Source of the DNA: Sedimentisphaera cyanobacteriorum
Lineage (GTDB): Bacteria > Planctomycetota > Phycisphaerae > Sedimentisphaerales > Sedimentisphaeraceae
DNA: 32,000 nucleotides
NCBI RefSeq assembly: GCF_001997385.1
Contig: NZ_CP019633.1
Coordinates: forward strand, 930,001-962,000
Direction: 5' to 3'
Shown here: positions 1,824 to 29,830 of the stretch, one piece after another
Layout: every line of letters starts with the position of its first letter
Numbering within the stretch: the stretch's first letter is position 1
Program-made: the position numbers and the translations under genes
The notes under the pieces: model-generated
Seen by the model: only the letters and a program-made list of their open reading frames with translations
Databases searched by the model: none
Told to the model about the DNA's origin: nothing

Positions 1824-2870
1824 TTAAGAAGGCGAACTTGTAATATCACCAAGTGCGGAAGTAAATGAGCGGATATTTTCAGTTGGCACGCCATCCGGCA
1901 TTCCGCCTCCCGCTGAGGCGATAATTCCGGACTTATCTTCCGTGCCTGCAAATGCAGCTTTCACGCATTCAGAAACCTCTTCAGGAGTTCCGGAAGCCAA
2001 AACATCCCGCGGGGGTATATTGCCGAATAAAGCAACTTCCCCTCCTGTCCATTCCTTCATCTCTTTGATAGAATGCAGAAAACTGAAATTGAACATATTA
2101 ACGCCAACCTCTGCCAAATGAGAGCTGCAGCCTTTCCCGTCTGCATCGTTATGGAAGAACCGAACAGAGCAGTCGAAAGCTGAAAAAATTCTCTTCAGGT
2201 ATTTAGAGGCAAACTCCTTAAAATCCGGCTCGCCGCAGAAACCCACTATATCATCAAGGATCAGGATGCCGTCTATAGTAGGGAATTCCTGTTTTTGCAG
2301 TCTCAGCCAATTTTCAGTATATTCTGTGATTATTTCAAGGAGCTTATGCACCTTCTCAGGGTCTGTTCGCAGGGCCATAAGAAATTCGGTTGTTCCCATA
2401 AGGAACGAAGCTATATTAAGAGGGCCTCTTGCAGCAGCGAACCTCACTGAATGACCAATACCTTCGATTTTTGTTCTGTTCAAACGCAGACGATTCAAAA
2501 CAAAAGGTGCTAAGCCGTCGGTTTCCGTTTTGGGAAGAGTGAGGCTGTCTATATCATTAACACAACTGATGATTTTGTCTGCGTGCGGAAGACCGTTTCT
2601 CTGAAAGCTGCATTTTGCGCCAAATGCGGAAGGCTCAGTACACATCCCGTACTCTGCCCAAAATCCGGGAAGAAACATCACATCGGGAAAGGTTTCTACA
2701 GCCTTCATATTGGCCTCAAACCAAAGCCGGTCATTAGTAAAGTAGTCAATCGTTGATATCCCGTACCACTCGGGCAGCCATGGGCTGTCAATAATAAAAC
2801 CCGCAGGAATGGTCTCCTGCGAGTTTCCGTTAATAACATCTATCAGTTTTTTCCACTGCACGTCGTTCAA
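1824..2870 (-). CDS. Uroporphyrinogen decarboxylase (URO-D, PF01208-like) family protein
   Basis: 348-aa ORF with a TTG start at 2870 and GGAGA 6 nt upstream; there is no in-frame ATG nearby. The URO-D/MtaA-like TIM-barrel pattern is visible by eye (PVMFLPGFWAEYG..., RGPLNIASFLMGTTEFLMAL, ILILDDIVGF, FHNDADG, GGGMPDGVPTENI). The family call is by recognition only and the substrate is unknown. Confidence 0.7.
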   Translation of the reverse strand: MNDVQWKKLIDVINGNSQETIPAGFIIDSPWLPEWYGISTIDYFTNDRLWFEANMKAVETFPDVMFLPGFWAEYGMCTEPSAFGAKCSFQRNGLPHADKIISCVNDIDSLTLPKTETDGLAPFVLNRLRLNRTKIEGIGHSVRFAAARGPLNIASFLMGTTEFLMALRTDPEKVHKLLEIITEYTENWLRLQKQEFPTIDGILILDDIVGFCGEPDFKEFASKYLKRIFSAFDCSVRFFHNDADGKGCSSHLAEVGVNMFNFSFLHSIKEMKEWTGGEVALFGNIPPRDVLASGTPEEVSECVKAAFAGTEDKSGIIASAGGGMPDGVPTENIRSFTSALGDITSSPS

Positions 2871-2904
2871 AGCACATCTCCAGTAAAATCTATTTTAATC
2901 TCTA

Positions 2905-4866
2905 TTATCTTAGTATAAACCTTGCGGCAAATCCGCCTCCAGGGGCAAGATTTATCTTCAAAGTGTCTTTCCGCGTAACTTCTTTTTTGATATAGGCGAA
3001 ATCGCTTGCATACCTTTCTGCATTTGCGCCGTCTTTCCATATATGAGCAGTATAGCTGCCTTTACCGAGAAATGAAAGATCTGCTTCGAGCTGCCTTTCA
3101 GACCAGTCTGTCATAGCCCCGAGATACCACTCTTCGCCTGACTTCCTTGCGGTAAGAGCATACTCGGCCACCTTCGCATCAAGCACCTCTGTCTCGTCCC
3201 AGACAGTGGGCACGGCCGAGAGAAACTCCATACATTCAGGCTCCTGCTTATAAAGCGAAGGGCTGTCGCATAGCATTTGAAGAGGGCTCTCGAAAATCAC
3301 ATACATTGCAAGCTGATGACATCTGGTTCCGAGGCTCATCGGGCGTTCAAATCTTTCGGCAAAATTTTCTTTCTGAGCATTCACCATCGCTCCCGGCGTA
3401 TAATCCACCGGTCCGGCATACATCCTTGTAAACGGAAGAGTGATATTATGCTCGGGATTAGCTCGCTCACTCCATTTGTTCTGCTCGCCGCCTCTAACGC
3501 CTTCTCTTGTTATAACATTCGGGTATGCCCTGCGAAGGCCGGCCGGCTTGTATGAACCGTGAAAATCCACAAGCATATGACGCTCGGCGGCATCTTTAGC
3601 CACCTTCTCATAAAAATTCACCATCCACTGATCATCCCTCTGCATAAAATCAACCTTGAGCCCCTCAGCGCCCCACTTCTCAAACATCGGCATCACCTCT
3701 TCAAACTGCTGATTCAGCGTGTGCCAGGTCATCCATAGGATAATCCCAACATCCTTCTTCTCTGCATAGCTGAAAAGCTCAGGCAGGTTCATATCTTCAG
3801 CTGGAGCTGTAAGGTCTTTCAGAACATACCAGCCTTCATCGAGTATTATGTAATCAAGGCCGTGTTCAGAAGCGAAATCGATAAAATATTTGTATGTTTT
3901 CGTATTAACACCCGCATCAAAATCAACACCGAAAATGTTATTTGCATTGTACCAGTCCCAAGCTACCTTGCCGGGCTTTATCCAAGACGTATCTTCCAGC
4001 TCACAGGGACTTGCGAGCTTCCAAACCAGCTGACTGTCTATGAGGTCTTCATCCTCCTTAGCAATTCCAACCACTCGCCAAGGGAAAGCCCTTGTGCCTC
4101 CGGTTTTTGCGATGTAATCGGCACGTTTATCAATCACCGGAACCCTGTCTCCTTTACCCGCAGGGTTAATGTGGGAATCTAAAACAAATTTCGGAAAAAC
4201 CGCCTCAAAAGACTTTGCTCCGCTGCCTTGCAGATAGAACCCGGGATAATCGCGAAGATCAGATTCAGTGAGAACCACCTTAGGGGAATTATCCGGTGCT
4301 ATCAGGGCAGGGATTGAACAAAATCTGTCTGAATCAATTTTTGAAAGGGATGTATGCAGATATTCCCTCTCCTGATGGGTAATCATACTTTTCTCTTCAG
4401 GGAAATAAAGCTTATGGTCCTTGGGGAAATTGAACTCGGCAGTTTCGGATTTTATAATTTGTTCGCCGTCAAAATCAGTTTTGAACCTGTAAGCAGCGCC
4501 ATCTTCATAAGCTCTGAAAACCAATGACCATCCTTGGCGGAAATTAAGCGTGATTTCTTGGAAGTTATCCTTAATCTCCCTGCGTTTCTCACGCACAGCG
4601 GGCTTAAGCGTCCGGCTTATGCTGCGTTTATTCTGGGATATTAAATCAGGCTCAGAGCCCAGCACCCCTCTGCTGGAGTTAAGCAGAATCTTCGAAGGCA
4701 AAAGAATTTGTTTGCCTTCTGCCTTAACACTCCACTGAATATCTTTATCGATTTCAACTGATATCTGCACTGAATCATCAGGGGAATGAACTTTGTAAGT
4801 TTCAGCATAAATATTTGAGATTAAGGCTGAAGCAAAAACCAGAAATGCAAAACGAAGTAAACACAT
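2905..4866 (-). CDS. Glycoside hydrolase family 97 (alpha-glucosidase/alpha-galactosidase-type), secreted
   Basis: 653 aa with signal peptide MCLLRFAFLVFASALISNIYAE and an AAGGA RBS. GH97-typical blocks are present: KPGKVAWDWYNANN...GVNTKTYKYFIDFASEHGLDYIILDEGW, GLKVDFMQRDDQWMVNFYEKVAKDAAERHMLVDFHGSYKPAGLRRAYPNVITREGVRGGE. Confidence 0.85.
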   Translation of the reverse strand: MCLLRFAFLVFASALISNIYAETYKVHSPDDSVQISVEIDKDIQWSVKAEGKQILLPSKILLNSSRGVLGSEPDLISQNKRSISRTLKPAVREKRREIKDNFQEITLNFRQGWSLVFRAYEDGAAYRFKTDFDGEQIIKSETAEFNFPKDHKLYFPEEKSMITHQEREYLHTSLSKIDSDRFCSIPALIAPDNSPKVVLTESDLRDYPGFYLQGSGAKSFEAVFPKFVLDSHINPAGKGDRVPVIDKRADYIAKTGGTRAFPWRVVGIAKEDEDLIDSQLVWKLASPCELEDTSWIKPGKVAWDWYNANNIFGVDFDAGVNTKTYKYFIDFASEHGLDYIILDEGWYVLKDLTAPAEDMNLPELFSYAEKKDVGIILWMTWHTLNQQFEEVMPMFEKWGAEGLKVDFMQRDDQWMVNFYEKVAKDAAERHMLVDFHGSYKPAGLRRAYPNVITREGVRGGEQNKWSERANPEHNITLPFTRMYAGPVDYTPGAMVNAQKENFAERFERPMSLGTRCHQLAMYVIFESPLQMLCDSPSLYKQEPECMEFLSAVPTVWDETEVLDAKVAEYALTARKSGEEWYLGAMTDWSERQLEADLSFLGKGSYTAHIWKDGANAERYASDFAYIKKEVTRKDTLKINLAPGGGFAARFILR

Positions 4867-5077
4867 AAAAATCCTTTCTTTAAAAACGTATAATCATTTT
4901 TGAATATTATAACTGATAATTCAAAAAGATAAAGTCGCAGATGCAAGTAAAAACACTTTACGAAGCGTTTGTGAGCAGTTATTTTTCCCGAAAATAGATT
5001 TTTATTTGAATTTGCTTTATTCGTGTATTATAAGGAAGTTTATATAAAGTTTTTTAAGTAAGCGCAGGGGTGTAATT

Positions 5078-5791
5078 ATGTGTTATTCATTCAAATACCT
5101 ATCAATTGGCGGGGCTTTTTTGTTAATATTCGTTTTGCCTGCTTCGGCCATTCTGGTTTCAAACGACGGAACGTCTTTCAATGTAAATCTGATAACGGGC
5201 ACTGAGACAGCAGCGCAATACTACAATTACGGCGGACTTTTAAACGGAGGCAGCCCAGACTTCGGCCCTGAAAGTGAGAAGGGCTTTTTCTGGCTGTATG
5301 AGCAGGAAGGCAGCTCTACCTTGCAGCTGTGCATGATTGTAAACACACAAGGGGGAACCGCTTCGAATGTGGATATGCGATTTTTCAATGCAGATTCAGG
5401 GCTTCCCGATGGATTTGAGACGGTGCTTGTGGCAGATGACAAATCTTCAGAGCTTAAGTATGAAGGTTCCAAAAATGAATTTGAAGGCAATTGGAATTGG
5501 AGCTCTTATGGGGATGGCGGTGTAATTGGAGACCTGCTCTCAAACCCAGAGGAAAACAGCGAAATCCACATTGCTGTTGGCAACTTAGCATCAACAGATT
5601 TCGACTGGTATTTTGTTTCGCAGGGCGAAGACAAATATGCCAACCCGCTGATTTTTTATGATGACGGAACTTTTGAGACTTCCGGCTCTCTCAACGACTC
5701 TCAGATGATTATTACAATCCCCGAGCCGGCTACAATTACGTTAATCGGTTTAGGGATTATCGCAAGCAGGCACAGAAAAAATTATGTTTAG
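5078..5791 (+). CDS. PEP-CTERM sorting-domain secreted protein
   Basis: 237 aa with an N-terminal signal peptide (LSIGGAFLLIFVLPASA). The C-terminus IPEPATITLIGLGIIASRHRKNYV has a PEP motif, a TM helix and a basic tail. AGGGGTG RBS before the ATG. Confidence 0.85.
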   Translation: MCYSFKYLSIGGAFLLIFVLPASAILVSNDGTSFNVNLITGTETAAQYYNYGGLLNGGSPDFGPESEKGFFWLYEQEGSSTLQLCMIVNTQGGTASNVDMRFFNADSGLPDGFETVLVADDKSSELKYEGSKNEFEGNWNWSSYGDGGVIGDLLSNPEENSEIHIAVGNLASTDFDWYFVSQGEDKYANPLIFYDDGTFETSGSLNDSQMIITIPEPATITLIGLGIIASRHRKNYV

Positions 5792-5801
5792 TGCAAAGCT
5801 T

Positions 5802-7307
5802 TTATTTTATCGGGTCTCTTCTGTCCCTCTGATGCTTCGGGATTGATTCATAGATTTCGCGTGCCTTCTTGGCATACTTCGTTCCCGGGTATGTCTCGAT
5901 AACCTCACGGCAGGCTTCAATGAGCTTTTTGGAGCTACCCAGACGGGTGTAGCTGCCTCTGAGCATCTCGGCCTTCTTAAGGAGTCTCTTGGCCTTATAC
6001 TCCTCGGTTTCTGTAAGCCCGTTCGACTGAGCCTTTGCAGGGGAATTAGGATCTGCTGGCTGCTCATTTTGCTGCTGGCCGGTATTCTGCTGCTGAGGCT
6101 GGGCAAAAGGATCGAATCTATCACCGCCGAACGGATCTTCCGAAGCGTCTTCTCCAATACCTGCCAGCCCTGCAAGCGAATCGGGATGAGTTATACCGCC
6201 CATAAGTCTGTCGCTTAAGAGTCTGAAAACCACCCCAAATTCCGGACCTGCATATTTTATACTGCCGGAACTATCGCATACCAGTACCGCCATATCCAAA
6301 GCATTCGCCCAAGCGCCGAGAACTTCGGGCAGCTCTTCTAACTGCTCGTCTTCTTTTTTCGGCTCAGAAACAAATACCGTATCCTTCAGCTTAGCATCAG
6401 TCTCTTTGAGCATCTGATCGGCCCTGCTTCTGTCTTTATCAACATTGACAGAGAGAAATTTTACCGCAGGGAGATCTTTATTCATATCCTTAAGGTTAAG
6501 GAAATATTTCAAATTTTTGGCTATTTTATTCTCCTCAACGTTTCTCTGAGAAATTATATCGCTCAGAAGCTTATCGTTCTCTGAGTAAGTTTTCTGTGCC
6601 TGTGTGAGCTCGTATTTCCCGGCAGACCATACAAAGATGCAGTTCAGCGGTTTCATATTCCCTTTCGGAACAATATCCCCGCCTAAGCCCAGCTCAGAGA
6701 TATTCCTGCCTCTGAGTTTGAAGATGTTTTTATCATAATCGAGTTTTATCGGGATATCATACGAGCTGACAGAGTCGAGCTGTTCTTCATCTATACGCTT
6801 GAGGAAATACTCTCTGTCTATCGGTTCTTCAAGAGCGATTAAAGAAAAGACAGTCAGCGATTTATAAGCCAACTCACTGCCCGGGGAAAGCTTGCAGGCG
6901 CTGATTGCTTTCTTTCTGCAGCGTTCCGGTTTTTCGCCTTCCAAATAACCGTACCAAGCATCGGCCACGTAAAGATCGCTTTTATGCTCATTGCTCATAT
7001 AACGGCTGTATTTCTTGCCCGCTATGAGCTTCATACGAATCTCTCTTTTCTTTTTTTTGTCTATCTTTTTTGAATCGGCAGCCAAACCTGCCAGTTCTGA
7101 AACGAGCTGTTTGATTTCCTGATGGGCTGTTTGAGCCTTGTTTTTCAGCTCATTAATTCTCTGCTCTCTGCTTACATCCCTGTCTATATTTCGACGCTCG
7201 GGAACCGCCCTTCTGCGGGGATTGTCGAAGCGATCTGCCGCTTGAAGGTTATTATAAGACACGAAAGAAAATATCACTGCGATTAAAACAGTTAATCTGA
7301 TTTTCAT
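5802..7307 (-). CDS. Hypothetical secreted protein (coiled-coil N-terminus, possible degenerate thioredoxin-like fold, Q-rich linker, TPR/YbgF-like C-terminus)
   Basis: 501-aa ORF with signal peptide MKIRLTVLIAVIFSFVSYNNLQA and an AAGGGG RBS. I recognise no family confidently; see findings. Confidence 0.65.
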   Translation of the reverse strand: MKIRLTVLIAVIFSFVSYNNLQAADRFDNPRRRAVPERRNIDRDVSREQRINELKNKAQTAHQEIKQLVSELAGLAADSKKIDKKKKREIRMKLIAGKKYSRYMSNEHKSDLYVADAWYGYLEGEKPERCRKKAISACKLSPGSELAYKSLTVFSLIALEEPIDREYFLKRIDEEQLDSVSSYDIPIKLDYDKNIFKLRGRNISELGLGGDIVPKGNMKPLNCIFVWSAGKYELTQAQKTYSENDKLLSDIISQRNVEENKIAKNLKYFLNLKDMNKDLPAVKFLSVNVDKDRSRADQMLKETDAKLKDTVFVSEPKKEDEQLEELPEVLGAWANALDMAVLVCDSSGSIKYAGPEFGVVFRLLSDRLMGGITHPDSLAGLAGIGEDASEDPFGGDRFDPFAQPQQQNTGQQQNEQPADPNSPAKAQSNGLTETEEYKAKRLLKKAEMLRGSYTRLGSSKKLIEACREVIETYPGTKYAKKAREIYESIPKHQRDRRDPIK

Positions 7308-9926: not shown

Positions 9927-9962
9927 AAGACGCATCGGTTTGAAGCTGATGCGTCTTTTTCT
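9927..9962 (+). terminator. Rho-independent terminator after the htrA-like gene
   Basis: Perfect 10-bp stem aagacgcatc (9927-9936) / gatgcgtctt (9948-9957), an 11-nt loop, then a T-run (tttttctt). Confidence 0.75.
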
Positions 9963-9971
9963 TATTAATCC

Positions 9972-9999
9972 TTGACATAGCTAAAAAATAATCTAAACT
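9972..9999 (+). promoter_or_regulatory. Putative sigma70-like promoter for the riboswitch-led transcript
   Basis: TTGACA (9972-9977), a 16-nt spacer, then TAAACT (9994-9999), about 30 nt upstream of riboswitch helix P1. Promoter consensus in this lineage is not known to me. Confidence 0.4.
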
Positions 10000-10027
10000 C
10001 CAAGCAGTCTTTGAAAATTGAAAATGT

Positions 10028-10173
10028 GCAATAGTTTAAGGGAACGCAGTGAAAAACTGCGACGGACGCGCCGCTGTGAGCGTTTCGGGTTGCCCGAAGA
10101 CTGCTTCATTAAGCCACTGCCAAAGGCGGGAAGGCGAAGCAGTTATACGCAAGTCAGAAAACCTTTCTATTGC
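10028..10173 (+). promoter_or_regulatory. Cobalamin (B12) riboswitch aptamer
   Basis: P1 helix is gcaatag (10028-10034) paired with ctattgc (10167-10173). Conserved cobalamin-riboswitch blocks appear in order: AAGGGAA, GCAGTGAAAAACTGC (GGTGAAAATCC-like), CGCCGCTGT, GCCACTG, GGGAAGGC, and the B12-box-like AAGTCAGAAAACCT. Confidence 0.85.
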
Positions 10174-10241
10174 TTTAATGCTTGTTCTCGCGTTACAGGA
10201 CAGAGGCATATTAAAACATTATGTGAAAATTGTTTTTAATA

Positions 10242-10280
10242 AGGCCTTGTTCTCTTTGCGGGAGCAGGGCCTTTTTTATT
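10242..10280 (+). terminator. Riboswitch expression-platform intrinsic terminator (attenuator)
   Basis: 13-bp stem (3 G-U pairs) aggccttgttctc (10242-10254) / gggagcagggcct (10260-10272), loop tttgc, then ttttt-a-tt. It lies between the aptamer and the ATG at 10308. Confidence 0.7.
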
Positions 10281-10307
10281 AACTTTTTCCATAAGGAACG
10301 TGTATCT

Positions 10308-11600
10308 ATGAAAAATTTTATTGTAATGTTTTGTCTTTGTTTTGTTGGCGGAGTGCTTGCAGAAGACCCAAACACAGTTGTCTGTGATGAAATCATTGGA
10401 AGCGGAAACTCAATCTGCTACCTATCGATCGATTTCGATACAGACCTCAGCAATGATGATGTAACCTACGGCTATATGTTTGAAGCCGGCCAAAGCGTAA
10501 CAGGGCTCGATGTGATCGATGCGTTAGCTGCTGAGGGTGTGATTGAATGTGATTACACAATTAGCACTTACGGCGCATTTATTACTCGATTCGCAGCGGG
10601 CGGAAGAGATTATGAGGCTGTCTGGGGCTCACAGGCTCAGCAATGGTGGGCATACTACACCTCCGAAGACGGGCAGAACTACTCCCAGAGCTTCACAGGA
10701 GCGGCTTCGAGAACGCTTTCCGACGGCGATTTCGACAAATGGGTTTATACAATCGAAGGCACAAGTGATTTCGGTATGTGGGTTACCGATACTAACGGAG
10801 ATTTTGACGGGTCAACCTACAAAAAACCGGAGAATATTACAGGCAAACCGGCAAGCTCTTTCTTTGATTCATGGTCCGGACAAACTCGGCTGACGAAGGT
10901 TGTGGAAGCACCTTACGGCGAAAACACCCTGCTTTCTGTCAATGAAGGAGAGTATGCTGTCGTAAAATTTGACCACAAGGTTATGGACGACCCTTCAAAC
11001 CCATACGGGAAAGATTTCATTCTTTTCGGGAACGCTTTCTACACCTGTGAGTCCGGCTGGGTGGATGATGACAGCGATATGTCTGAGTTTTATACAAGCG
11101 GGGGTATCTGGAGCGAAGAAATTACAGTTTCTGTAAGCAAAGACGGAGAGAACTGGTACACCTACAGCTCAGGCCCGTTTGCAGACGGAGAATTCCCCAC
11201 ACAGGGCTTTCACTGGGATCAGGACAAATACGACAGCGAAGGGTATGGCTGGACATCCATTGAGAAAGACTTCACTCAGCCAGTTGACCCATCAATCAAA
11301 GACACACTCCTCGACGGAAGCACTGTGGATATTGCAAGCATTATAGATGCTTACGGCACCAGCGGAGGCGGCACCGCATTCGACCTTCAGGAAAGCGGCT
11401 TTGACTGGATTAAGTATATAAAAATCGAAGGCAGCGGCGGCGAAATTGATGCAGTTGCTGATGTAACCTACTGCGGCGATGCTCAGCATCCTCAGCCTGC
11501 AGGCGATGTTACTGGAGACTGCCGGGTTAACATTGAAGATTTCGCTCAGATGGCAGCAGACTGGATGAGCTGCACTTGGGGCTGCCAAGACCTGCAATAA
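10308..11600 (+). CDS. Secreted protein: N-terminal transcobalamin-like/DUF4430-like domain, central beta-rich domain, C-terminal dockerin/EF-hand-like repeat
   Basis: The ORF track starts at TTG 10230, inside the terminator hairpin. I prefer ATG 10308 with an AAGGAA RBS at 10293-10298 and signal peptide MKNFIVMFCLCFVGGVLA. Residues about 35-150 (SVTGLDVIDALAAEG...YGAFITRFAAGG...WWAYYTSEDGQNYSQSFTGAASRTLSDGDFDKWVY) follow the DUF4430 pattern (G.F...I.G...W.Y..NG......GA....L.DGD.i.W.Y). The C-terminus is GDVTGDCRVNIEDFAQMAADW. Confidence 0.8.
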   Translation: MKNFIVMFCLCFVGGVLAEDPNTVVCDEIIGSGNSICYLSIDFDTDLSNDDVTYGYMFEAGQSVTGLDVIDALAAEGVIECDYTISTYGAFITRFAAGGRDYEAVWGSQAQQWWAYYTSEDGQNYSQSFTGAASRTLSDGDFDKWVYTIEGTSDFGMWVTDTNGDFDGSTYKKPENITGKPASSFFDSWSGQTRLTKVVEAPYGENTLLSVNEGEYAVVKFDHKVMDDPSNPYGKDFILFGNAFYTCESGWVDDDSDMSEFYTSGGIWSEEITVSVSKDGENWYTYSSGPFADGEFPTQGFHWDQDKYDSEGYGWTSIEKDFTQPVDPSIKDTLLDGSTVDIASIIDAYGTSGGGTAFDLQESGFDWIKYIKIEGSGGEIDAVADVTYCGDAQHPQPAGDVTGDCRVNIEDFAQMAADWMSCTWGCQDLQ

Positions 11601-11655
11601 AAACTCAATTAACATATCTCAGGGAGCGGATACTTATCTGCTCCCTAATATTTAT

Positions 11656-12411
11656 ATGAACAGAAGACTAAAAAATCAGGGATTTACGCTCATCGAGCTT
11701 TTGACAGTAACAGCTGTTATCGGAATGCTGATTGCATTATTACTTCCAGCTCTGAACAAGGCAAGGCAGGAGGCTAAATCTTCTGTATGCAGGAACAAGC
11801 TCAGACAGATGTCCTTAGCTGCCAGCGCTTACAACAACACCTATGACGGCTATTTCCCCCCTGCTTACGACTTCAAGAAAACTGATTCCGGATTTTTAAA
11901 CATAAACTGGGATTTCATAATAGAAAATTCAACCAAAATTAAACCCGGACTGCTGTGGATGGGAGAAAGTCAGCCCGAGATTCAGCAGTGCCCTTCATTC
12001 AAAGGAAATTCCAACACACCGTCAGACATATACACAGGCTACAATTACAATACAAGCTATATAGGCCGAGGGGCGAATGAAACAATAAGCAGACCGGCTA
12101 AAATTGAAGAAATAAGCCGCCCTTATCGTTGTGCTGTTTTTGGAGATGGTGAATTTTCCGGCGGGGCTAACAAGTTTATGCGAAGCCCTGAGCCAAGCAG
12201 ATTCGACAAGTCTTTCAGCGGAAGAAACGCAGGCACGCAAGGTTTCAGGCATAACGGAAAAACCAGCATTGTCTGGGCAGACGGCCACGCAAGCTCACAG
12301 CGAAAATGTTTTGCTGAAAGAAGCGATGCAAGCAGAAGCGATATAGAAAACATTGCTGAAGGCACAGGATTTTTGTCCGCAGACAACTCTGCATACAGCC
12401 TGAAAAAATAA
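11656..12411 (+). CDS. Prepilin-type N-terminal cleavage/methylation domain protein, DUF1559 (H-X9-DG) family pseudopilin-like
   Basis: The N-terminus QGFTLIELLTVTAVIGMLIALLLPAL is a class III signal (G|FTLIEL). The C-terminal H-NGKTSIVWA-DG is an exact H-X9-DG motif. Confidence 0.9.
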   Translation: MNRRLKNQGFTLIELLTVTAVIGMLIALLLPALNKARQEAKSSVCRNKLRQMSLAASAYNNTYDGYFPPAYDFKKTDSGFLNINWDFIIENSTKIKPGLLWMGESQPEIQQCPSFKGNSNTPSDIYTGYNYNTSYIGRGANETISRPAKIEEISRPYRCAVFGDGEFSGGANKFMRSPEPSRFDKSFSGRNAGTQGFRHNGKTSIVWADGHASSQRKCFAERSDASRSDIENIAEGTGFLSADNSAYSLKK

Positions 12412-12441
12412 AAGGCCGCCCAAAAAAAACAGACGGCCTTT
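12411..12441. terminator. Hairpin between convergent genes, likely terminator (better T-tract for the minus-strand operon)
   Basis: Stem aaaggccg (12411-12418) / cggccttt (12434-12441) with an A-rich 15-nt loop. Read on the minus strand the stem is followed by tatttttt. On the plus strand the trailing T-run is weak. Confidence 0.55.
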
Positions 12442-12464
12442 ATCTAAACAATTATGAAAGGGTC

Positions 12465-12842
12465 TCAGTCTGCCTTAATATCATGGTTTAAGCCGATAGA
12501 CTTATTGTAAGTATTGAAAAGGCTCATCATCGAAGCCATCTCTATGGCTGCTGTAATTTCTTCATCAGTTATGCCCTGCTGCTTGGCAAGAGCTCTGTGG
12601 GCATCGATGCAGTAGCTGCAACCATTAGCCGCGCTCACAGCAATCGCTATAAGCTCTTTGGTTTTTCCATCCAGCCCAGACCCAGCGGTTTCCATAACCT
12701 TCAAAACGCCTTCGAGGAAATTGCCGTTTCTGCCCATAGCCTGAAAGGTTTCGGGCACGAATCCAAAATTCTTTTCCAGATTATTTTGAATCTCGACAGC
12801 CTTTTCATCTCCTGTTTTGTTGTAAAGTTTTGTAATAGCCAT
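12465..12842 (-). CDS. Carboxymuconolactone decarboxylase / AhpD-like family protein (CxxC)
   Basis: 125 aa. The AhpD-core signature is AIAVSAANGCSYCIDAH (C-x-x-C-x-x-x-H). An AAGGGAAAC RBS sits in the 12-nt gap after the upstream stop. Confidence 0.8.
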   Translation of the reverse strand: MAITKLYNKTGDEKAVEIQNNLEKNFGFVPETFQAMGRNGNFLEGVLKVMETAGSGLDGKTKELIAIAVSAANGCSYCIDAHRALAKQQGITDEEITAAIEMASMMSLFNTYNKSIGLNHDIKAD

Positions 12843-12854
12843 AAATGTTTCCCT

Positions 12855-13625
12855 TTATAAATATTGATATTTTAGTACAGCTTTATAAACCCCGTTGAGC
12901 CGATCTGAACAGACCTTTGATGGAGGGAAGTCGGTATTGCGAGGCTGAAGCCTAATACTTCCCTCATTTTCATAATATACTCTCTTAAAGGTAGCCTCAA
13001 AAGGGTCTTTGAATCTTACGAAGCAGTCATCACCGTTGTTCACAGCTCTTGAAGGCGAGAAGACCACAATATCTCCCTCGGAGTATTCGGGCATCATTGA
13101 ATCCCCCACCACCCTCACAGCAAAAGCGTTTGGATCGTTCAGCCCTGGGCAATTGATGTATTCATCAGCAAAGCCGGCAGGGTAAGACAAATCCCCAAAC
13201 TCAGCCGGATAGCCGGCACTGACTTTATTGATTACAGGAATAACCCCGGAAACACTGTTGCTGCGAAAATCTTTTATGTCTAAATGATGCTTCTCGAGAA
13301 ACTGCCTAACCTGTCCGGTATTATCTTCCTGGAGCATTTCAGAAAGAATCCGCCTGAACCTTTCATTTTCCACAAATGAACCTTCGATCTGGTCTCTCAA
13401 AGGCATAGGCATTTTTTTCATCTCGGCCAGATATAACAGCTCGCCCCTGTCAAAACCAAGCAGGTCTTCCAGTTTCGTCAAAAATTCCTGCCCGGGAGGA
13501 TTGCGGACTTTCCCTGTTTCAACGGTGGATATATACGGCTTTGAATAGCCGATCTTCTCGCTTACTGCGTCGAGTGTAAGCCCAAGTTCTTTCCTTCTCT
13601 TCCTTATTATCTTTCCAAGTACCAT
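12855..13625 (-). CDS. XRE-family HTH + peptidase S24 (LexA/CI-like) autocleavable transcriptional regulator
   Basis: 256 aa with an N-terminal HTH_XRE (IRKRRKELGLTLDAVSEKIGYSKPYISTVETGK). IPVINKVSAGYPAEF aligns with the LexA VAA-GEP scissile Ala-Gly region. S24 catalytic Ser is in VVGDSMMPEY and Lys in ATFKRVY. Confidence 0.85.
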   Translation of the reverse strand: MVLGKIIRKRRKELGLTLDAVSEKIGYSKPYISTVETGKVRNPPGQEFLTKLEDLLGFDRGELLYLAEMKKMPMPLRDQIEGSFVENERFRRILSEMLQEDNTGQVRQFLEKHHLDIKDFRSNSVSGVIPVINKVSAGYPAEFGDLSYPAGFADEYINCPGLNDPNAFAVRVVGDSMMPEYSEGDIVVFSPSRAVNNGDDCFVRFKDPFEATFKRVYYENEGSIRLQPRNTDFPPSKVCSDRLNGVYKAVLKYQYL

Positions 13626-13644
13626 CGTTTTCCCGCTATGCTTT

Positions 13645-14343
13645 TCAATGAAAGTTTATGCAGAAGAAAGTTAAAATAAAACCATTACTTACCATATAAT
13701 CATAATAGAAACAGACGCCTGAATCACGTAAAAAATTTTTTTGCATATAATTTGAATTCGGCAGAATCTTAACAGCCCCGTTATTGCGGTAATCAAGTAT
13801 GATCTCGTCAAAATTCATAAACCTGTCTTCAATATTCCCGAAACACTTGCCAACAGATTCCCTCAGAGAAAATGATATCCCCGCCCTTTGCTTGCTGCGG
13901 TCTGAAACAATCTGGCAGTATTCCCTGTGAGGAAGAAAATTTTTCAAATCTTCTGCGTCTATATCGTTCAAAAGCTCCATATCCGCCCCTATGCTTTTGA
14001 AACTGCTTTTCTGAGCAGCGGCTGCAAAAACCAGCCCGCCTGAATGGGAAATTGTACATGTTATACCGCTTGGGGCTTTAACGCTGCCGTTGGAGTTTAC
14101 AGTAAGGTCGCTGTAAGAGACTCTCATACTGGACAATATTTTTTTGAGCAGATGCCTGCCGGCAGAGAATTCCTCTAACCTCTTTTTTCGAGCGTCTTTG
14201 ACGGCCTCTCTCTCTAATGCAGAAAGCTCGCTGGTGTAGTCTGAAGATTGGGCAATCTCAAAACGAACATCAGAAGGGAGTATTTCTCTCCAGCTCTTAG
14301 CAAGGGCTCTTAGCATTTCAGTTTGCTTGGATAATCTGATCAA
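13645..14343 (-). CDS. 4'-phosphopantetheinyl transferase (Sfp/EntD type)
   Basis: 232 aa. EFSAGRHLLKKIL, TISHSGGLVFAAAA and IGADMELL (G-x-D-x-E) plus SLRESVGKCF (the position of the [FW]-x-x-KE-[SA]-x-x-K motif) match the EntD/Sfp layout. Start is ATG at 14343 (26-nt overlap with the NRPS 3' end) or ATG at 14316 (1 nt after the NRPS TGA). Confidence 0.75.
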   Translation of the reverse strand: MIRLSKQTEMLRALAKSWREILPSDVRFEIAQSSDYTSELSALEREAVKDARKKRLEEFSAGRHLLKKILSSMRVSYSDLTVNSNGSVKAPSGITCTISHSGGLVFAAAAQKSSFKSIGADMELLNDIDAEDLKNFLPHREYCQIVSDRSKQRAGISFSLRESVGKCFGNIEDRFMNFDEIILDYRNNGAVKILPNSNYMQKNFLRDSGVCFYYDYMVSNGFILTFFCINFH

Positions 14344-17300
14344 TTTTTCCCCTGATGAATGCCGGCAAAACTTTCGACTTCCTGATAATAAAACCGTGGT
14401 CGCCGGGAATCACTTTAAGCTCTACATTATTAACAAAATTCTTCCATCCAAGCGCAGCTCCCCTTAGAAGCCAATGCTCTCTTTCTGAAGCGGTGCAGAG
14501 TATTATATCCCCATCGTATTTATGTATTTTATGGGTTCTGGCGGCATTGAGATTCATCTTATAAACATCTTCTCTGTTTGAAACATATTTATTCTTGATT
14601 TCATCGTCCTGCCTGCTGAAATGCTCCCCTATAATCTCCTCCACGCTTTCAAACTGCTTATGCTTTTTCAGATAAGAAATAATAAACTTAAACATACCAA
14701 CAGGTCCAAGCGAGGCCAAATTCCAAGCTAAGTCAAAGTAGTAGGGCAGATTAATGTCAGCAGGAGGCATTGAGGGAACGTCCACCATAAGCAGCATACC
14801 TACCTTCCTGCCCATATCTTGGAGCATCTGAGCCATCTCATAAGCAATAAAGCCGCCAAAACACCATCCTAAAAGCAGATACGGGCCTTCAGGCTGAAAA
14901 TCAAGCAGCAGGTTTACGTAATACTCCGCCATCTCAGGAAGCGTTTTATGGGCTTTATTCAAATCAGACAGCCCGGCAGACTGGAATCCATAACAGGGCT
15001 GGTCTTTGCCAAGGTGATGAACCATATTTGCATAGCCGAGCACATCGCCGCTCAGCGAATGAATAAAATAAACAGGCAAACGCTGCCTGCTGCCTTTATT
15101 CAGCTCAACAAGGCATTTTTCCTCACTGCTGTCAGCACCCCCTGCGTTCTTAAAATCAAGAAAACCTGCCAAACCGGCTATTTCAGGATACTGAAGAATT
15201 TTTTCTATGCCAACGAACAGACCTCGTTCAGAAAGCAGGGAATCCATTTTTATCAGCATCAGCGAATGGCCGCCAAGGTCGAAGAAATTGTCATAAACGC
15301 CGAAATCGCTCCTTTCCAGAAGCTGCACCCAGATATCACGCAGCACTTCTTCCATAGGATTGCGAGGCATTACAATACCCGAACCAGCCTTTTCGCTCTG
15401 CGATAGCCCCTCTTGGGCACTTTTAAGCAAAGCATCACGGTCTGTCTTGCCGTTCTGGTTTAACGGAATTTTATCAATAGTGAAAATTTGAGCGGGCTGC
15501 ATATAATCCGGAAGTTTGCCTCTAATATAAGCACGCAGATCTTCTTCTTTGAAAGACTGCCGTTTTTCGGGAACCGCAAACAGCAGCAGTTTTTTTTCTG
15601 ACCCGGAGCTATCTGATGCAGCAACAGCCGCCTCTTTCACCCCGGCGTATTCCATAACAGCCTTCTCAATCTCCCCGGGCTCAACACGAAAACCGCGAAC
15701 CTGAATTTGAGAATCCTTCCGGTGAATGAACTCAAGATTCCCGTTTTCCTTTCTGCAAACTATATCACCTGTGCGATACATTCTCTCTGCCGGGTTAAAC
15801 GGGCTTTGGACAAATTTTTCTTTCGTCTCATCTTCAAGGCCGAGATAACCGCGAGCTACGCTTTTTCCGCTTATGCATAGCTCTCCCTGCCCGCCTTTAG
15901 CTGCAGGCTTTAGATCCGGACCTAATATATGAGCCTTATTCCCAGAAATCACATCACCTATATCGGGCAATTCGTCATTTCTTCCAGCTGGAGAAACCTT
16001 GCCGCAGGTTGCTATAACGGTGCATTCTGTAGGCCCGTATTCGTTGTACAAATCAAAACTCAACCCCTCAGGCGGGCGCTTGCTGAGTCTTTCGCCGCCG
16101 GTTTTAAGAACCTTTAGACTGCAATCACAAGGCCAATTTTCGAAAACTGCAAGCTCTGCAAGACGGGTAGTCATATCGCATATAGTTATTCGATTAGCGC
16201 AAAGCCAATCAATCAGTTTTTCGATATTGAAAATAATTCTCTCAGGCGGTATATGAACGCTTGCACCGGCCATAAGATAAGGCCAAATCTCGGAGACAGA
16301 TGTATCGAAACAAGTTCTTGCCAGATTGCTCGCTCTGTCTGAAAGAGAAATCTTGTAAAAATTCACCTGCCAGTTAATAAGGTTCTTTAGGCTGCGTCTT
16401 TCTACTTCAACCCCCTTCGGCCTTCCTGTGGAACCAGAAGTGTATATCACATAAGCAAGGCTCTCCTCTGAAACATCAGAACAAATCCGCTTTTGCCTCT
16501 CTTTGTTTTTCAATTGCTCTATATCAACATCTATAAAAGGCACTGCTTCCAATAATTTCTCATAATGCCGGTTTTTCGAGGCAAAAACGCAGGACACCTG
16601 AGCGTTTTGAATTATATAATTTATTCTCTCCTCAGGATAATCCGGATCTACAGGAACATACCCCCCTCCCGCTTTCAGCACAGCCAGCGCAGCTGCAGTA
16701 AATTCTATACCTCTGTCATACAAAACTGCGACCCTGCTGTCTGCCTTTACCCCGGCACTTATCAGCTTGGAGGCAAGCAGATCTGTTACCTTGTCCAGCT
16801 CTTGGTAAGTAAGATAATGTGAATAATCGCAAACAGCGGGTTTATCGGGATTCAATTCTGCATATTTGACAAAGCTTTTCGGAACTTCAAGCTCTGAGTC
16901 TTCTGTGCTAACGTTTTCTATATTCTCAAATGTGCTTGAAGGCAGAAAATCAGAAAGATTAGAGTTTGGTGAGGCAATTATCTTATCAGTTATCTCAAGC
17001 AGCTCATTGGAGAGTTTGCTGATTACAGAATAGTTGAAGATATTTGTATTGTATTCAAACCAGCCCTCAATAATTCCGTCTCGAGATTCGAGATCTAAGG
17101 TCAAATCAACTTTTGCGGTATTATTCCCAATATCATCAACACGTATTCTGCAGCTGCCCAATTCTGATTCCGGCGTATGAGCATTTTGAAAACTGAATAA
17201 ATGCTGAAAAACCGGATGAGCTGAAGGATACTTTACCAAATTCAGCTCCTGCACCAGATTTTCAAACGGGTAATTCTGATTTGTAAAGGCTTGAACGGTG

Positions 17301-20300
17301 TCAGTTTTTATCGAATCCAGCAGCGAAAAGACACTTTTCCCCCTCGAAACATTCAATTTTTGTACTATGCTGTTTATAAAAAGCCCAACAAGCTGTTCTG
17401 TTTGAGAATTAGGGCGATTTGCTATTGGAGAACCGATTATTATCTCATCTGTCTCAGAATGTTTTCTAAGCATAATTGAGTATGCAGTGAGAAGAAGCAT
17501 ATATTCAGTAACCGAATGCCTGCTGCAGAAATTATGAAACTCATCGCTTCTGTCTTTTCCAAAATTAAAATAATACCTTCTGCCCTCAAATGTCTGAGTT
17601 TCCGGTCTGGGTAAAGTGCAGTCGAGCTTTAATAGTCCTTTTATTCCATGAAGTTTGTCTATCCAAAATCTTTTCTGCGACTGAGCATCTTCAGAGCTCA
17701 GCCATTTCTGCAGCCATAGAGAATAATCGAAATATGAAATCTCCGGCCTGAATTTTTCTATGTCGCCGCCGATTAAAAGATTTTCGTAAATACCCTTCAA
17801 CTGCTTTTCAAAAACGCCGAGAGAGAAGCCGTCGAATACAGCATGATGAAAACCTGCAAGTAGGCTGTAAGTTTGAGAATCGTATTTGATAAGAGAAAAC
17901 CTGCAAACTTGGCCTTCCTTTAAGTCGAATCTGGAATCTCTAAACCCGCAGATAATCTCTTCAGATAAATCTTCAGCCTTATCATCCGGCATATTAGAAA
18001 GATCATGAAAAACATAATCAACTTGATGGTCTTTGCTTTCCTTTATGAGATACGAATCAGATATTTCAAACTTCAGCCTCAAACACTGCTGATATTCGAC
18101 AAGCTTTTTAACGGCAAGCTCAAGAAGCTCAACGTCTAACTCTCCTAATATCTCAAAATTGCATATAATACTGCAAATGTTAATTTCGGGCACAAACGAA
18201 TCCAAAAGCCACATGTGAATTTGTGAAGGAACAGCTGGAGATTCATTTAAATAAGTTGGTTCTATTTCTACAGACTGCTCATTAGATTTTGAGTCTGCCT
18301 TTTCTGCTAAAGAAGAAATATATGGAGATTTGAAAAAATCTGTGATATTTATATTTGTTCCGAATTTATGGTTAATCTTTGAAACAACCTTAAACGCCAT
18401 TAATGAATGACCGCCTGACTGGAAAAAATTGTCTTCCGATGAAAAGTTAGAATGCCCTAATATCTCAGACCAGATCTCAGCTATAGCCTTTTCTGTATTA
18501 CTTTTTATCGCCGGCTTATTCTCGCAGGATAATTCAAGGCTTTTTTCATACTCGTAAGCTTTATGTTTTAGCAATTCTCTGTCAATCTTGCCATTTGTAT
18601 TCATGGGGAAATCGTCTAGAGGTATGATATAAGCTGGTATCATATATTCCGGCAGGTTGTTAATCAACGTTTCCTTAAGCTTATCCTTATCAAAATTGCT
18701 CTGTTCATTTAACGTAACAAAACAGCAAAGTTTTTTTGCCCCCGCTGATTCTAAATCAACAGCAGCAGCCTGACTGACAAATTCATACTTCAGGGCAGCC
18801 TTTTCGATTTCACTCAGCTCGACCCTGAACCCGCGTATTTGTATTTGGAAGTCTTTCCTGCCTATATAGTCAATATTCCCGTCCGGCCTTCTTCTAACCA
18901 CATCCCCTGTTTTATACATCTTCAACCCGGGCACAAATGGGTCATCAAGAAAACGTTCTGCAGTTTGTTCGGGCAGATTAACATAACCTCTGCCCACACA
19001 GGGGCCGCTGATAAAAAGCTCACCCTCACAGCCTTCTTCTACGGGTTTTAAGCTTTCGTCCAGAATATAAGCAAAACTTCCCGGAACAGCTTTACCTATG
19101 TGCGGGAATTCACCGGACTCTTCTTTATGACCGATTATTCCTGAAGTGCTTGTAACACAGCATTCAGTTGGGCCATATTCATTGAAGAACGTAAAAGGCA
19201 AAGACCCAAGGGGGAATTTTTTGAGTCTGTCTCCTCCTGTTTTCATAATTCTGAGCGAGATATTATCCGGCCAGTTTTCAGAGATAACGATCTCTGCAAG
19301 AGGTGTTGTTACATCAGCAACAGTAATCTCATTCTCGCAAATCCATTTTATAAGTTTATTAGGGTTATAAACGGTATCCGCTTCAGCAATATGAACGCTG
19401 GCTCCACAAGATAAAGTTGGCCATATTTCTGCAATCGATGTATCAAAGCTAACCCTTGAGAGCTGGCTCATCCTGTCATTAGGTGTATAACTGTAAAAAT
19501 CATTTTCCCAGTCAACCAGATAGGCAAGGTTACGGTGCTCAATTTCAACGCCCTTAGGTCTGCCGGCAGAACCAGAGGTATAAATTGTATAGGCAAGAAA
19601 ATCAGGCGATAAAGAAACATTCAGCGGGTAATTATCAGAGTTCAAAAGCTTTTGGAGCTCAACGTCCAAAATCTGCTTTGTCTTTAGAGGAAATTCTGCT
19701 TCTGCGCAATTAAGAACAATATCAATATTTCCGTCTTCAAGTATGCAGCCAATTCTTTCATTAGGATATTTAACATCCAATGGAACAAAACATCCTCCTG
19801 CCTTCATAACTGAAAGACAGGAAACTATAAACTCAATACAGCTTGCCCCGTATATACCAACTTTGCATTCATTTTCCACACCTGAAATTTTTAGTTCATT
19901 GGCCAAAGCATCAGAAGCTTTCTCGAGCTGTTTGTACGTTAGAGAAGAATCGCCCTGCTCAACAGCAATTTTATTTGGGGTGTTTGATGAAAAAAGACTG
20001 ATCCTTTCAGGCACACTCTGGAAATTATAATTACGCTGAGAAGATTGAAGCGGTGCAAAAGAAATTAAATCAGAAACATAATTAACCCGGCCGGCAGTCA
20101 TCTTTTCTGCTGTATCAATAAAATCATCAGTTAAACCTTTAACAACTGATTCTGAAAACAAATCAGTGTTATACTCAAACCATCCCTTGATTATTCCTTT
20201 GGAATTTTCAAGGTTTAGGGTCAAATCTATCTTTGCGGTATGGTTGCCGATCTCATCAAGCTCAAGCTCCAAACCTGCAAAATTGATGTAAGGTATATGT

Positions 20301-28489: not shown

Positions 28490-29830
28490 CTATCCCATCA
28501 TTGCCGCAGGCTTGAGCAATGTGCCTTTTCTGTTTATTCTGTCAACACAATTTATAACAGCAAACACAAACATTAGCTGATACAAATTATTTGTTTGCCG
28601 AAGAACCCATTCAAGTGTGGATTGAATATATATGGCTGTCAAGCCACCCCAGAGCCCCATCGAAATCACCTTAAGTCTCATATCTTTCGCCTTAAAGATA
28701 TTTACAATATTTCTGGCATAAAATGAAAATATAAAGAGTGTAAAAATCCCGAGATTGTACCAGCCGGTCTCTGCGGCTGTCAGCAGGTAAACTGTTTCCA
28801 CGATTGCCCCCTGGTTTTCGGGCGTCCCGTCCCATTCTACATCTATATGATCAGTGTATGGATAATCTGTAGTCATAAAACGCGTGAAATTATTAATCCC
28901 AACACCCAAAATATTATCGTTTGCCATTTCCTGAGCTGAGATAGCGAGCGAAACCCTTGTTTCAGCTGAGGCTTCAGGTGCATTAACAAATCTTTCCACT
29001 ATAGAGTCCAGCGCCTTAAACAGCCCGCCTATCCCTGCAAGTGCGAACAGAGTGATTACAAAAACCTTGCGAAGGCTGAATCTCCACGATATCTGCTGAA
29101 GAAAAACAACAAATACACCTATAAAAGTGCACAACATACCGGCCCTTGAAAGGCTAGAAACTACACAGAAAAACTCCAGCCCTATTATAAATATCCAATA
29201 AAACATCTCTGGAATTTTCTTTGAAGACATCAGCATTGAAAAGTGTACGCAAAGAAAAACAGAAACATACATCACCATTGAATTCTGATGCGGAAATGGT
29301 CCTGAAGACTGGAATTCGCCTATCAAATATTTCTGCTGGGCAACAATAATTGCTATATAAACAGCGATAAATGAAGTGGATATAAAGGCTCTTCTTATTA
29401 TTTTAGGGGTAACCAGAAGATTGTTCATAAGCCAGAAAAATGTATATACCCTTATAAACTTGAAGAGCTCAAAACCTGAAAAAAGCTTGTTTTCAGCATT
29501 GATCATCGAAAGAGCGCATCCAACAAAAAAAACACCAAATATAAGTGAGCCCTTCGGCAAACCGGTAAACTGATACTTATCCTTCTTTGATATTGCGTAG
29601 GTAAGCAGTATAATAACTGTCATATCCACCATACCAAAAGCAAATCCCCTTGAAGTGCCCCTAAACCATTCATGCGAATAGAAATTTATATCTATCAGCT
29701 TTGAAGTAAAGAATATGCAGAAGCCCAGAAAAAACCATGAGGTTTTAGGAAAGCGGTTTATAACAATAGAGCATACAGGCACAACAGTTATAAAAATCAG
29801 AAAAAACTGTATGTACTTCGCTTCTATCAC
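28490..29830 (-). CDS. O-antigen ligase/polymerase-like (Wzy_C family) integral membrane protein
   Basis: 446 aa and polytopic. It carries SSLSRAGMLCTF (SRg..l), a large loop with LGVGINNF, and AAETGWYNLGIF (ExG..G) as in Wzy_C. The GTG start overlaps the upstream TGA (GTGA at 29830-29827). Confidence 0.7.
   Translation of the reverse strand: MIEAKYIQFFLIFITVVPVCSIVINRFPKTSWFFLGFCIFFTSKLIDINFYSHEWFRGTSRGFAFGMVDMTVIILLTYAISKKDKYQFTGLPKGSLIFGVFFVGCALSMINAENKLFSGFELFKFIRVYTFFWLMNNLLVTPKIIRRAFISTSFIAVYIAIIVAQQKYLIGEFQSSGPFPHQNSMVMYVSVFLCVHFSMLMSSKKIPEMFYWIFIIGLEFFCVVSSLSRAGMLCTFIGVFVVFLQQISWRFSLRKVFVITLFALAGIGGLFKALDSIVERFVNAPEASAETRVSLAISAQEMANDNILGVGINNFTRFMTTDYPYTDHIDVEWDGTPENQGAIVETVYLLTAAETGWYNLGIFTLFIFSFYARNIVNIFKAKDMRLKVISMGLWGGLTAIYIQSTLEWVLRQTNNLYQLMFVFAVINCVDRINRKGTLLKPAAMMG

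Follow-up and report, generated by a model that had tools for sequence, protein, structure and literature searches.

What does a cobalamin (B12) riboswitch control when it precedes the gene for a secreted protein rather than one for a transporter? This question is raised by a locus of Sedimentisphaera cyanobacteriorum that lies in a 32,000-nucleotide stretch of the genome (NCBI RefSeq assembly GCF_001997385.1, contig NZ_CP019633.1, positions 930,001 to 962,000, forward strand), referred to here as the window and numbered from its first letter. An earlier annotation from the sequence alone (the original prediction) took the riboswitch to govern a single gene for a candidate extracellular corrinoid-capture protein, and noted that the window contains no BtuB, BtuF, BtuCD or cobalamin biosynthesis gene, which our analysis confirms. 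There appears instead to be a two-gene operon, in which gene 1 codes for the secreted protein (P0001) and gene 2, which had been overlooked, codes for a pilin-like partner (P0146) that proves to be the more tightly linked of the two to the riboswitch. We put at roughly 60% the probability that this is a B12-repressed operon building a cell-envelope corrinoid-capture module.

The riboswitch and the genes behind it

The covariance model RF00174 matches positions 10002-10184 of the forward strand over its full length (model positions 1-189) with 68.4 bits, relative to a gathering threshold of 31.5 (E = 4.6e-15). The P1 helix is 7 bp long, with GCAATAG at 10028-10034 being the exact reverse complement of CTATTGC at 10167-10173, and this pairing is present in the minimum-free-energy fold of the leader, which has a fold z-score of -3.6. 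A B12 box, AAGTCAGAAAACCT, is read at 10151-10164. The aptamer is therefore as well formed as the original prediction had held, and its own terminator, previously placed at 10242-10280, is also present: a 14-bp stem (10241-10273) with TTTTATT directly 3' of it (-22 kcal/mol) constitutes an expression platform at 10241-10279. An equivalent terminator lies 3' of the aptamer in 46 of 56 homologous leaders, and the expression platform appears to be conserved along with the aptamer in leaders of this type. An OFF switch acting through transcription termination is a well-supported prediction. Across many metagenome leaders (related loci are given L numbers here; L020-L099, for example L039, 3551-3583) the terminator hairpins are similar in sequence, with GCCGYCGTTCC and GGGAACGRCGGC followed by a T-run. 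The 9-nt sequence CTTGTTCTC occurs twice in direct orientation, just past P1 (10181-10189) and in the 5' arm of the terminator (10246-10254), a repeat that may contribute to the switching mechanism; it is common to the closest relatives L100 and L001 only, and is not found in more distant leaders.

Upstream of the aptamer, and just 3' of the terminator of an htrA-like gene (9927-9957), there is a promoter-like sequence, TTGACA-16 nt-TAAACT (9972-9999, forward strand), that agrees with 10 of 12 consensus positions as a pattern match only; four sites of this kind occur in the region, compared with 3.7 expected by chance. Downstream, a Shine-Dalgarno-like AAGGAA (10293-10298) is positioned 9 nt 5' of the ATG at 10308, with which gene 1 begins (10308-11600 including the stop codon, forward strand; 430 aa). 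A longer TTG-started open reading frame of 456 aa (from 10230) was rejected, as it overlaps the terminator and the orthologs begin at an MKN/MKK ATG. The N-terminus of the gene 1 protein, MKNFIVMFCLCFVGGVLA followed by EDP, resembles a Sec signal peptide as judged by eye, and orthologs match it in the N-terminal region; the predicted signal peptide spans aa 1-18 (10308-10361) with cleavage between VLA and ED, and contains no lipobox. The original prediction of a signal-peptide protein thus holds.

Gene 2 (11656-12411, forward strand; 251 aa) begins 55 bases 3' of gene 1, and in relatives the two are spaced 14 nt apart or overlap. Between them a hairpin of 11 bp carries a weak T tail (11621-11646, forward strand); it might terminate transcription in part, or serve as a site of processing, and so set the ratio of the two products. 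A further hairpin (12411-12441) lies between convergent genes, and was detected as the terminator of the minus-strand CMD gene; it may also end the two-gene operon.

A predicted transcobalamin-like domain and a pilin-like partner

The original prediction matched residues of about 35-150 of the gene 1 protein by eye to the DUF4430, or transcobalamin-like, C-terminal domain. This similarity is borne out at the level of predicted fold and not by sequence models. The gene 1 protein has no Pfam match at E<=1 and a single, meaningless NCBIfam match of 16.9 bits, and DUF4430 (PF14478) matches none of 107 family members at E<=10, nor the family consensus sequences; because the HMMER speed filters discard most matches with E above about 0.1, these scans exclude significant matches but not every weak one. 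Sequence searches of the PDB similarly gave no meaningful match for the gene 1 protein or the N-domain profile, and none for the full-length family profile.

An AlphaFold2 model of the gene 1 protein, built with an alignment of 107 sequences, has a mean predicted local distance difference test score (pLDDT) of 85 and a predicted template-modelling score (pTM) of 0.74. The N-terminal domain in this model (N domain; aa 26-152, 10383-10763, ending in LSDGDFDKWVY, and delimited with a family hidden Markov model (HMM), AlphaFold2 and Foldseek) has strands at 35-42 and 51-58, a helix at 66-75, a hairpin at 80-86/89-97, and strands at 111-119, 125-127 and 142-150. When compared with the PDB by Foldseek, it matches the DUF4430 structure 3U7Z with a template-modelling (TM) score of 0.72-0.75, and the isolated human transcobalamin beta domain with (5NP4) and without (5NO0) cyanocobalamin at TM 0.68-0.70, all with a probability of 1.00. 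Full transcobalamin and intrinsic factor (2bb5, 2pmv) also reach a probability of 1.00, and every match with this probability is to transcobalamin, intrinsic factor or 3U7Z, at TM scores of 0.68-0.75 after normalisation to the beta domain. What sets the transcobalamin-like clade apart within the SLBB beta-grasp superfamily is a beta-hairpin inserted right behind the helix (Burroughs et al. 2007, PMC1796856). Because the helix at 66-75 is followed by just such a hairpin, and because of the Foldseek matches, we assign the N domain to this clade, and predict that it adopts the transcobalamin beta-domain fold. The two computational expectations of the original prediction are therefore borne out, in that the RF00174 match is highly significant and transcobalamin-like similarity is present structurally.

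The N-domain family contains at least 656 proteins, mostly stand-alone Verrucomicrobiota proteins of about 225 aa with a terminal PEP-CTERM. One relative, P0051, has the precomputed Pfam label PF28005.1, which could not be resolved and is absent from the output of the local Pfam copy; a very recent Pfam model may therefore cover the N domain.

The remainder of the gene 1 protein consists of a central beta-sandwich domain and a short tail. The central domain (aa 152-394, 10761-11489), delimited by homology searches and the model, contains the motifs LGKPT, NPYG.DF.VFGN, VSVS.DG.NWY, SGGGT.FDL and GGEIDAV.DV. It is common to all 24 relatives recovered in the first gene 1 search, and is found in a variety of architectures in 725 representatives (at 50% identity) of a 1.84-billion-protein library. 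Foldseek finds a weak likeness to discoidin (galactose-binding), CBM32 and F5/8-C jelly rolls (TM 0.38-0.50); F5_F8_type_C gives no Pfam match for the window protein, weak matches in 3 of 107 relatives, and E = 0.068 with the family consensus. The tail (11490-11597) is Cys-rich and conserved in P0002, P0003 and P0005. The dockerin/EF-hand-like repeat reported earlier at 11499-11597 is recovered in it only weakly, as a single repeat (aa 398-416), with a match to Dockerin_1 (PF00404) that is below the cut-off (E = 0.11, 13.2 bits relative to 22.9) and covers profile positions 1-19 only. Type I dockerins normally have two repeats. A PEP-CTERM is present in 81 of 107 relatives, and the Cys-rich tail stands in its place in the window protein. 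In view of the signal peptide (as judged by eye), the conserved cysteines and the PEP-CTERM of these relatives, we place the gene 1 protein outside the cytoplasm.

The gene 2 product has the N-terminus of a prepilin. Its sequence NQG followed by FTLIELL corresponds to a class III signal peptide, with G at -1, F at +1, E at +5 and then a hydrophobic alpha1 helix, and both prepilin models score above their cut-offs (N_methyl, PF07963, 26.4 relative to 21.2 bits; TIGR02532, 25.8 relative to 16.3). A structure model shows a 50-residue alpha1 helix (12-62) leading into a beta-sheet head. The family profile matches the alpha1 helices of type IV pilins and GspG at 1e-10 to 1e-5, and only alpha1 has solved relatives; for the head, Foldseek finds none, the best match being FimA 3sok (E = 0.1, probability 0.57). 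The DUF1559 models PF07596 (22.0 bits, cut-off 23.3) and TIGR04294 (12 bits, cut-off 19) both fall short for the partner, and the ortholog in Sedimentisphaera salicampi, which is 84% identical, passes TIGR04294 at 21.1. The partner has in common with the DUF1559/H-X9-DG prepilin-type proteins (PF07596, TIGR04294) the N-terminus of a prepilin, a PF07596 match close to the cut-off, and the H-x9-DG motif itself (H199-x9-D209-G210), but its orthologs differ from that parent family, which is without known function, in forming a discrete subfamily with a specific regulatory and genomic context. They are about 46-65% identical (about 50% across phyla), with the motifs TGYNYNTSY, GANKFMR and GTQGFRH, and 52 columns are invariant among 11 partner proteins.

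Conservation and context of the cassette

A search of genome contigs with the N-domain profile returned three loci, and the survey was therefore moved to the partner gene and a metagenome collection. At least 575 relatives of the partner are present there, of which 80 loci were fetched; riboswitch counts are limited to the 42 metagenome loci with more than 2.5 kb upstream, and clusters were defined at 90% identity. A cobalamin riboswitch is upstream of the partner in 40 of the 42 by nhmmer and in 41 after an Rfam match in L021, and in 34 of 35 distinct partner clusters. The nhmmer matches are on the same strand as the partner and 0.2-2.6 kb upstream of it (1.0-2.6 kb except in L090), with none elsewhere, and Rfam agreed in each of 11 nhmmer-positive loci that were rechecked. 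Judged by this conservation, chance association of riboswitch and gene is excluded.

Among gene 1 relatives, 13 of the first 14 loci have an upstream riboswitch. It lies directly 5' of the gene 1 relative in L001, L002, L004, L005, L008, L009, L010, L012, L014, L017, L018, L019 and L100, and a partner ortholog is directly 3' in every riboswitch-linked gene 1 relative examined. L100, from S. salicampi (CP021023.1), is syntenic with the window, and has in order genes for an HD protein and HtrA, the riboswitch, a gene for a 430-aa protein that is 89% identical to that of gene 1, the partner gene, and genes for CMD, a LexA-like protein, a 4'-phosphopantetheinyl transferase and a nonribosomal peptide synthetase (NRPS). 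By homology, the cassette is present in hundreds of Planctomycetota and Verrucomicrobiota contigs, and its architecture is not unique to the window.

The arrangement of the parts varies. Riboswitch, N domain, central domain and partner follow one another in 38 metagenome loci, and this order is kept in both Planctomycetota and Verrucomicrobiota; seven have riboswitch, central domain and partner, and in one (L090) the riboswitch leads straight into the partner gene. The others are cut by contig ends, with the exception of L021 (N domain, central domain and partner, with the riboswitch seen by Rfam only) and L084 (partner only). The L084 partner (4995-6609) is the sole one with a long upstream region that lacks riboswitch, N domain and central domain, and a BtuF-like gene is directly 3' of it. 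In Verrucomicrobiota the cassette has three genes, coding for an N domain with PEP-CTERM, a central domain and the partner; the central-domain gene of L010 and of L012 also holds a second N-domain copy. The window protein is a fusion of the N and central domains, and P0017 has them in the reverse order, central and then N.

The cassette usually stands alone, as it does in the window, and in several relatives it is accompanied by genes of B12 transport. Its neighbours are Peripla_BP_2 and FecCD in L002, Peripla_BP_2, an ABC ATPase, FecCD and CobA/BtuR in L005, and Peripla_BP_2 in L012. In L004 a divergent TonB-dependent receptor gene is upstream, and the region 3' of the cassette (10967-18052) codes for DUF6580, Peripla_BP_2, a second and short DUF1559-type protein, DUF3344, a deoxyhypusine-synthase-like protein, MotA/ExbB, DUF2149 and CobN; its gene content suggests an extended locus for the salvage of corrinoids or metalloporphyrins. 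A role in B12 uptake is supported because relatives adjoin genes for BtuF-like, FecCD, ABC ATPase, CobA/BtuR or TonB-dependent receptor proteins. The original prediction's tie of this architecture to B12 physiology is supported, with the corrections given here.

Just 3' of the cassette in L010 (11198-14514) is a second cobalamin riboswitch (97.3 bits), followed by genes for a class III NrdD and its activase. The class III ribonucleotide reductase NrdD is a classic B12-independent back-up enzyme.

A candidate corrinoid-capture module and its alternatives

In the account that we favor, binding of cobalamin to the aptamer when its intracellular concentration is high would allow the terminator to form and transcription to stop, and B12 limitation would give readthrough into both genes. 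The N domain would bind a corrinoid, as the isolated transcobalamin beta domain does in PDB 5NP4, and the central beta-sandwich domain would dock on the head of the pilin-like gene 2 product. The partner could then anchor or present the binder through a type-IV-filament-like assembly, with the captured corrinoid being handed to a conventional inner-membrane (Btu-type) importer encoded elsewhere. B12 binding by the gene 1 protein is inferred, like the other steps of this account, and the evidence that bears on it is contextual, namely the riboswitch and the Btu-type neighbours.

Several observations weigh against this account. No convincing antiterminator was defined in the leader, and a candidate alternative pairing has z = -1.8. 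Searches found no sequence-level link of gene 1 to DUF4430 or to any B12 binder, the fold rests on a predicted model, and SLBB domains bind diverse ligands (PMC1796856). In 27 of 28 long metagenome loci there is no Btu-type gene within 5 kb. L017 and the seven metagenome loci noted above have the riboswitch, central domain and partner with no detectable full N domain, and L018 retains just a short N-domain fragment; since such loci exist, the N domain is not indispensable. In L017 (520-4761) the riboswitch is followed by a beta-propeller in place of the N domain and then by the central-domain protein and the partner, and the propeller might be an alternative ligand-binding module; a BtuG analogue was considered for it and dropped, as by sequence it is BamB/PQQ-like. 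Lastly, L016 (3831-5861) has an N-domain and central-domain pair (P0004 being the central-domain protein) with a c-di-GMP-I-GGC riboswitch (62.8 bits), no partner and no cobalamin riboswitch. Both of its proteins have VPLPGA...KR exosortase-type tails, and four secreted proteins without a Pfam match follow. On gene content L016 is a paralogous pair outside B12 control, and the strict B12 link, as far as genomic association can tell, belongs to the triad of N domain, central domain and partner, and above all to the partner.

These observations bear most directly on the possibility that the partner, alone or with the central domain, is the B12-specific part, and that the N domain is a generic surface or ligand module that binds no corrinoid. 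The riboswitch is indeed linked most tightly to the partner, into which it leads directly in L090, loci with no N domain keep riboswitch, central domain and partner, the partnerless pair of L016 is not B12-regulated, and invariant polar and His residues are numerous in the partner. However, the partner head has neither a solved relative nor a known ligand site, the HX9DG motif is generic to the large DUF1559 family, and the N domain alone resembles a proven B12 binder, and we consider this explanation unlikely.

A different reading of the central domain is that the cassette is a surface module for adhesion or polysaccharide binding that is induced by B12 starvation, perhaps attaching the cell to B12 producers or exopolymers, with no direct corrinoid binding. 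Its appeal lies in the likeness of the central domain, weak as it is, to discoidin, CBM32 and F5/8-C carbohydrate-binding folds, in the occurrence of this domain in many large multidomain surface proteins, in the dockerin or PEP-CTERM anchors of many relatives, and in the control of the paralogous pair by a c-di-GMP riboswitch, as is typical for genes of attachment. Against it are the predicted transcobalamin-like fold of the N domain, the co-operonic arrangement of the cassette with BtuF, BtuCD and BtuR in several genomes, and the low TM scores of the discoidin matches, and it seems to us improbable.

We give similarly little credence to a model in which the gene 1 protein is a released, hemophore-like 'corrinophore' and the partner a dedicated pseudopilin that exports it via a type II secretion-like system, with no role in uptake or anchoring. 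The N-terminal region of the partner is GspG-type pseudopilin-like, and the window protein has no PEP-CTERM or lipid anchor, as such a model would have it, but the PEP-CTERM sorting signals of 81 of 107 relatives argue for retention by the cell, and we know of no dedicated per-substrate pseudopilin. A B12-independent isozyme of the metE or nrdD type was rejected, as both products are extracytoplasmic and carry no enzyme signatures.

The corrinoid-capture reading has a bolder form, in which the cassette is a type-IV-filament vitamin importer: the riboswitch-controlled DUF1559 pilin would bear the transcobalamin-like/beta-sandwich receptor on a (pseudo)pilus, which fishes for corrinoids and draws them across the outer membrane into the periplasm. 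We offer this tentatively, as a rather unlikely extension; if true, filament import would be a route that bypasses TonB and BtuB, and would be the first function assigned to any DUF1559 member.

A corrinoid-capture module of the kind that we favor has partial parallels in known systems. Secreted transcobalamin-like SLBB proteins of Gram-positives and planctomycetes were previously predicted to scavenge B12 (Burroughs et al. 2007, PMC1796856). With the beta domains of transcobalamin, intrinsic factor and haptocorrin, and with DUF4430 (PF14478, 3U7Z), the N domain shares its predicted fold and secretion, but searches gave no HMM or sequence similarity of gene 1 to them, and it has no alpha6/alpha6 barrel domain; the N domain is instead fused to or encoded beside a beta-sandwich domain and paired with a pilin-like protein, in a riboswitch-controlled stand-alone operon rather than within a CbiO/CbiQ operon. 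In Bacteroides, BtuG and BtuH are surface B12-binding lipoproteins, and act as accessory capture proteins of B12 uptake loci that supplement the core transporter; BtuG is a beta-propeller, and both are lipid-anchored with the TonB-dependent BtuB barrel as partner. The function proposed here would be analogous, but the fold of gene 1 is unrelated and a pilin-like protein takes the place of BtuB; the list of the 50 best Foldseek matches, out of 461 at E<=10, includes neither BtuG nor BtuH. In the competence pseudopilus an extracytoplasmic SLBB ligand receptor, ComEA, works with a type-IV-filament subunit to carry a ligand through the envelope, although this is an analogy only: ComEA is of the Nqo1-like SLBB clade and binds DNA via HhH motifs (PMC1796856), and outside the pilin alpha1 helix the partner showed no homology to ComG proteins. 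The cassette is described neither by a Pfam or NCBIfam model in the copies consulted nor by any paper that we found in the literature. New here are an SLBB variant unseen by sequence searches, coupled to an unannotated beta-sandwich domain, and, from the genomic comparisons, its obligate pairing with a specific DUF1559 pilin-like protein in a riboswitch-controlled operon.

B12 acquisition in Planctomycetota and Verrucomicrobiota is essentially uncharacterised, and DUF1559/HX9DG, one of the largest paralogous families in these phyla, is one for which we found no functional work in the literature. The cassette places one subfamily of it in a specific and testable context, that of B12 limitation, and suggests a new kind of partnership, in which a beta-grasp receptor that binds a soluble ligand works with a type-IV-filament subunit. 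It also defines two unannotated domains, of which one is predicted to be a cryptic transcobalamin-like fold missed by current HMM libraries, and many 'hypothetical protein' and 'PEP-CTERM protein' entries of environmental and gut Verrucomicrobiota could be reassigned to a B12 regulon. Because the cassette is found in a cultured genus, with a syntenic copy in S. salicampi CP021023.1, experiments on regulation and binding are feasible.

Three other regions of the window, all on the minus strand, were noted. A URO-D family protein is encoded beside a GH97 glycosidase at 1824-4866; some URO-D-like proteins are corrinoid-dependent methyltransferases, but this region shows no evident link to B12. 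At 13645-23158 there is a gene for a 2946-aa three-module NRPS with a terminal thioesterase, which adjoins that for a 4'-phosphopantetheinyl transferase, is syntenic in L100, and stands out in a small Phycisphaerae genome. At 29827-30885 lies the gene for a Wza-like polysaccharide export protein that has two SLBB domains, beside Wzy-like and pyruvyl-transferase genes; its SLBB domains are of the Nqo1-like clade, and the N domain of the gene 1 protein belongs to the other clade of the same superfamily.

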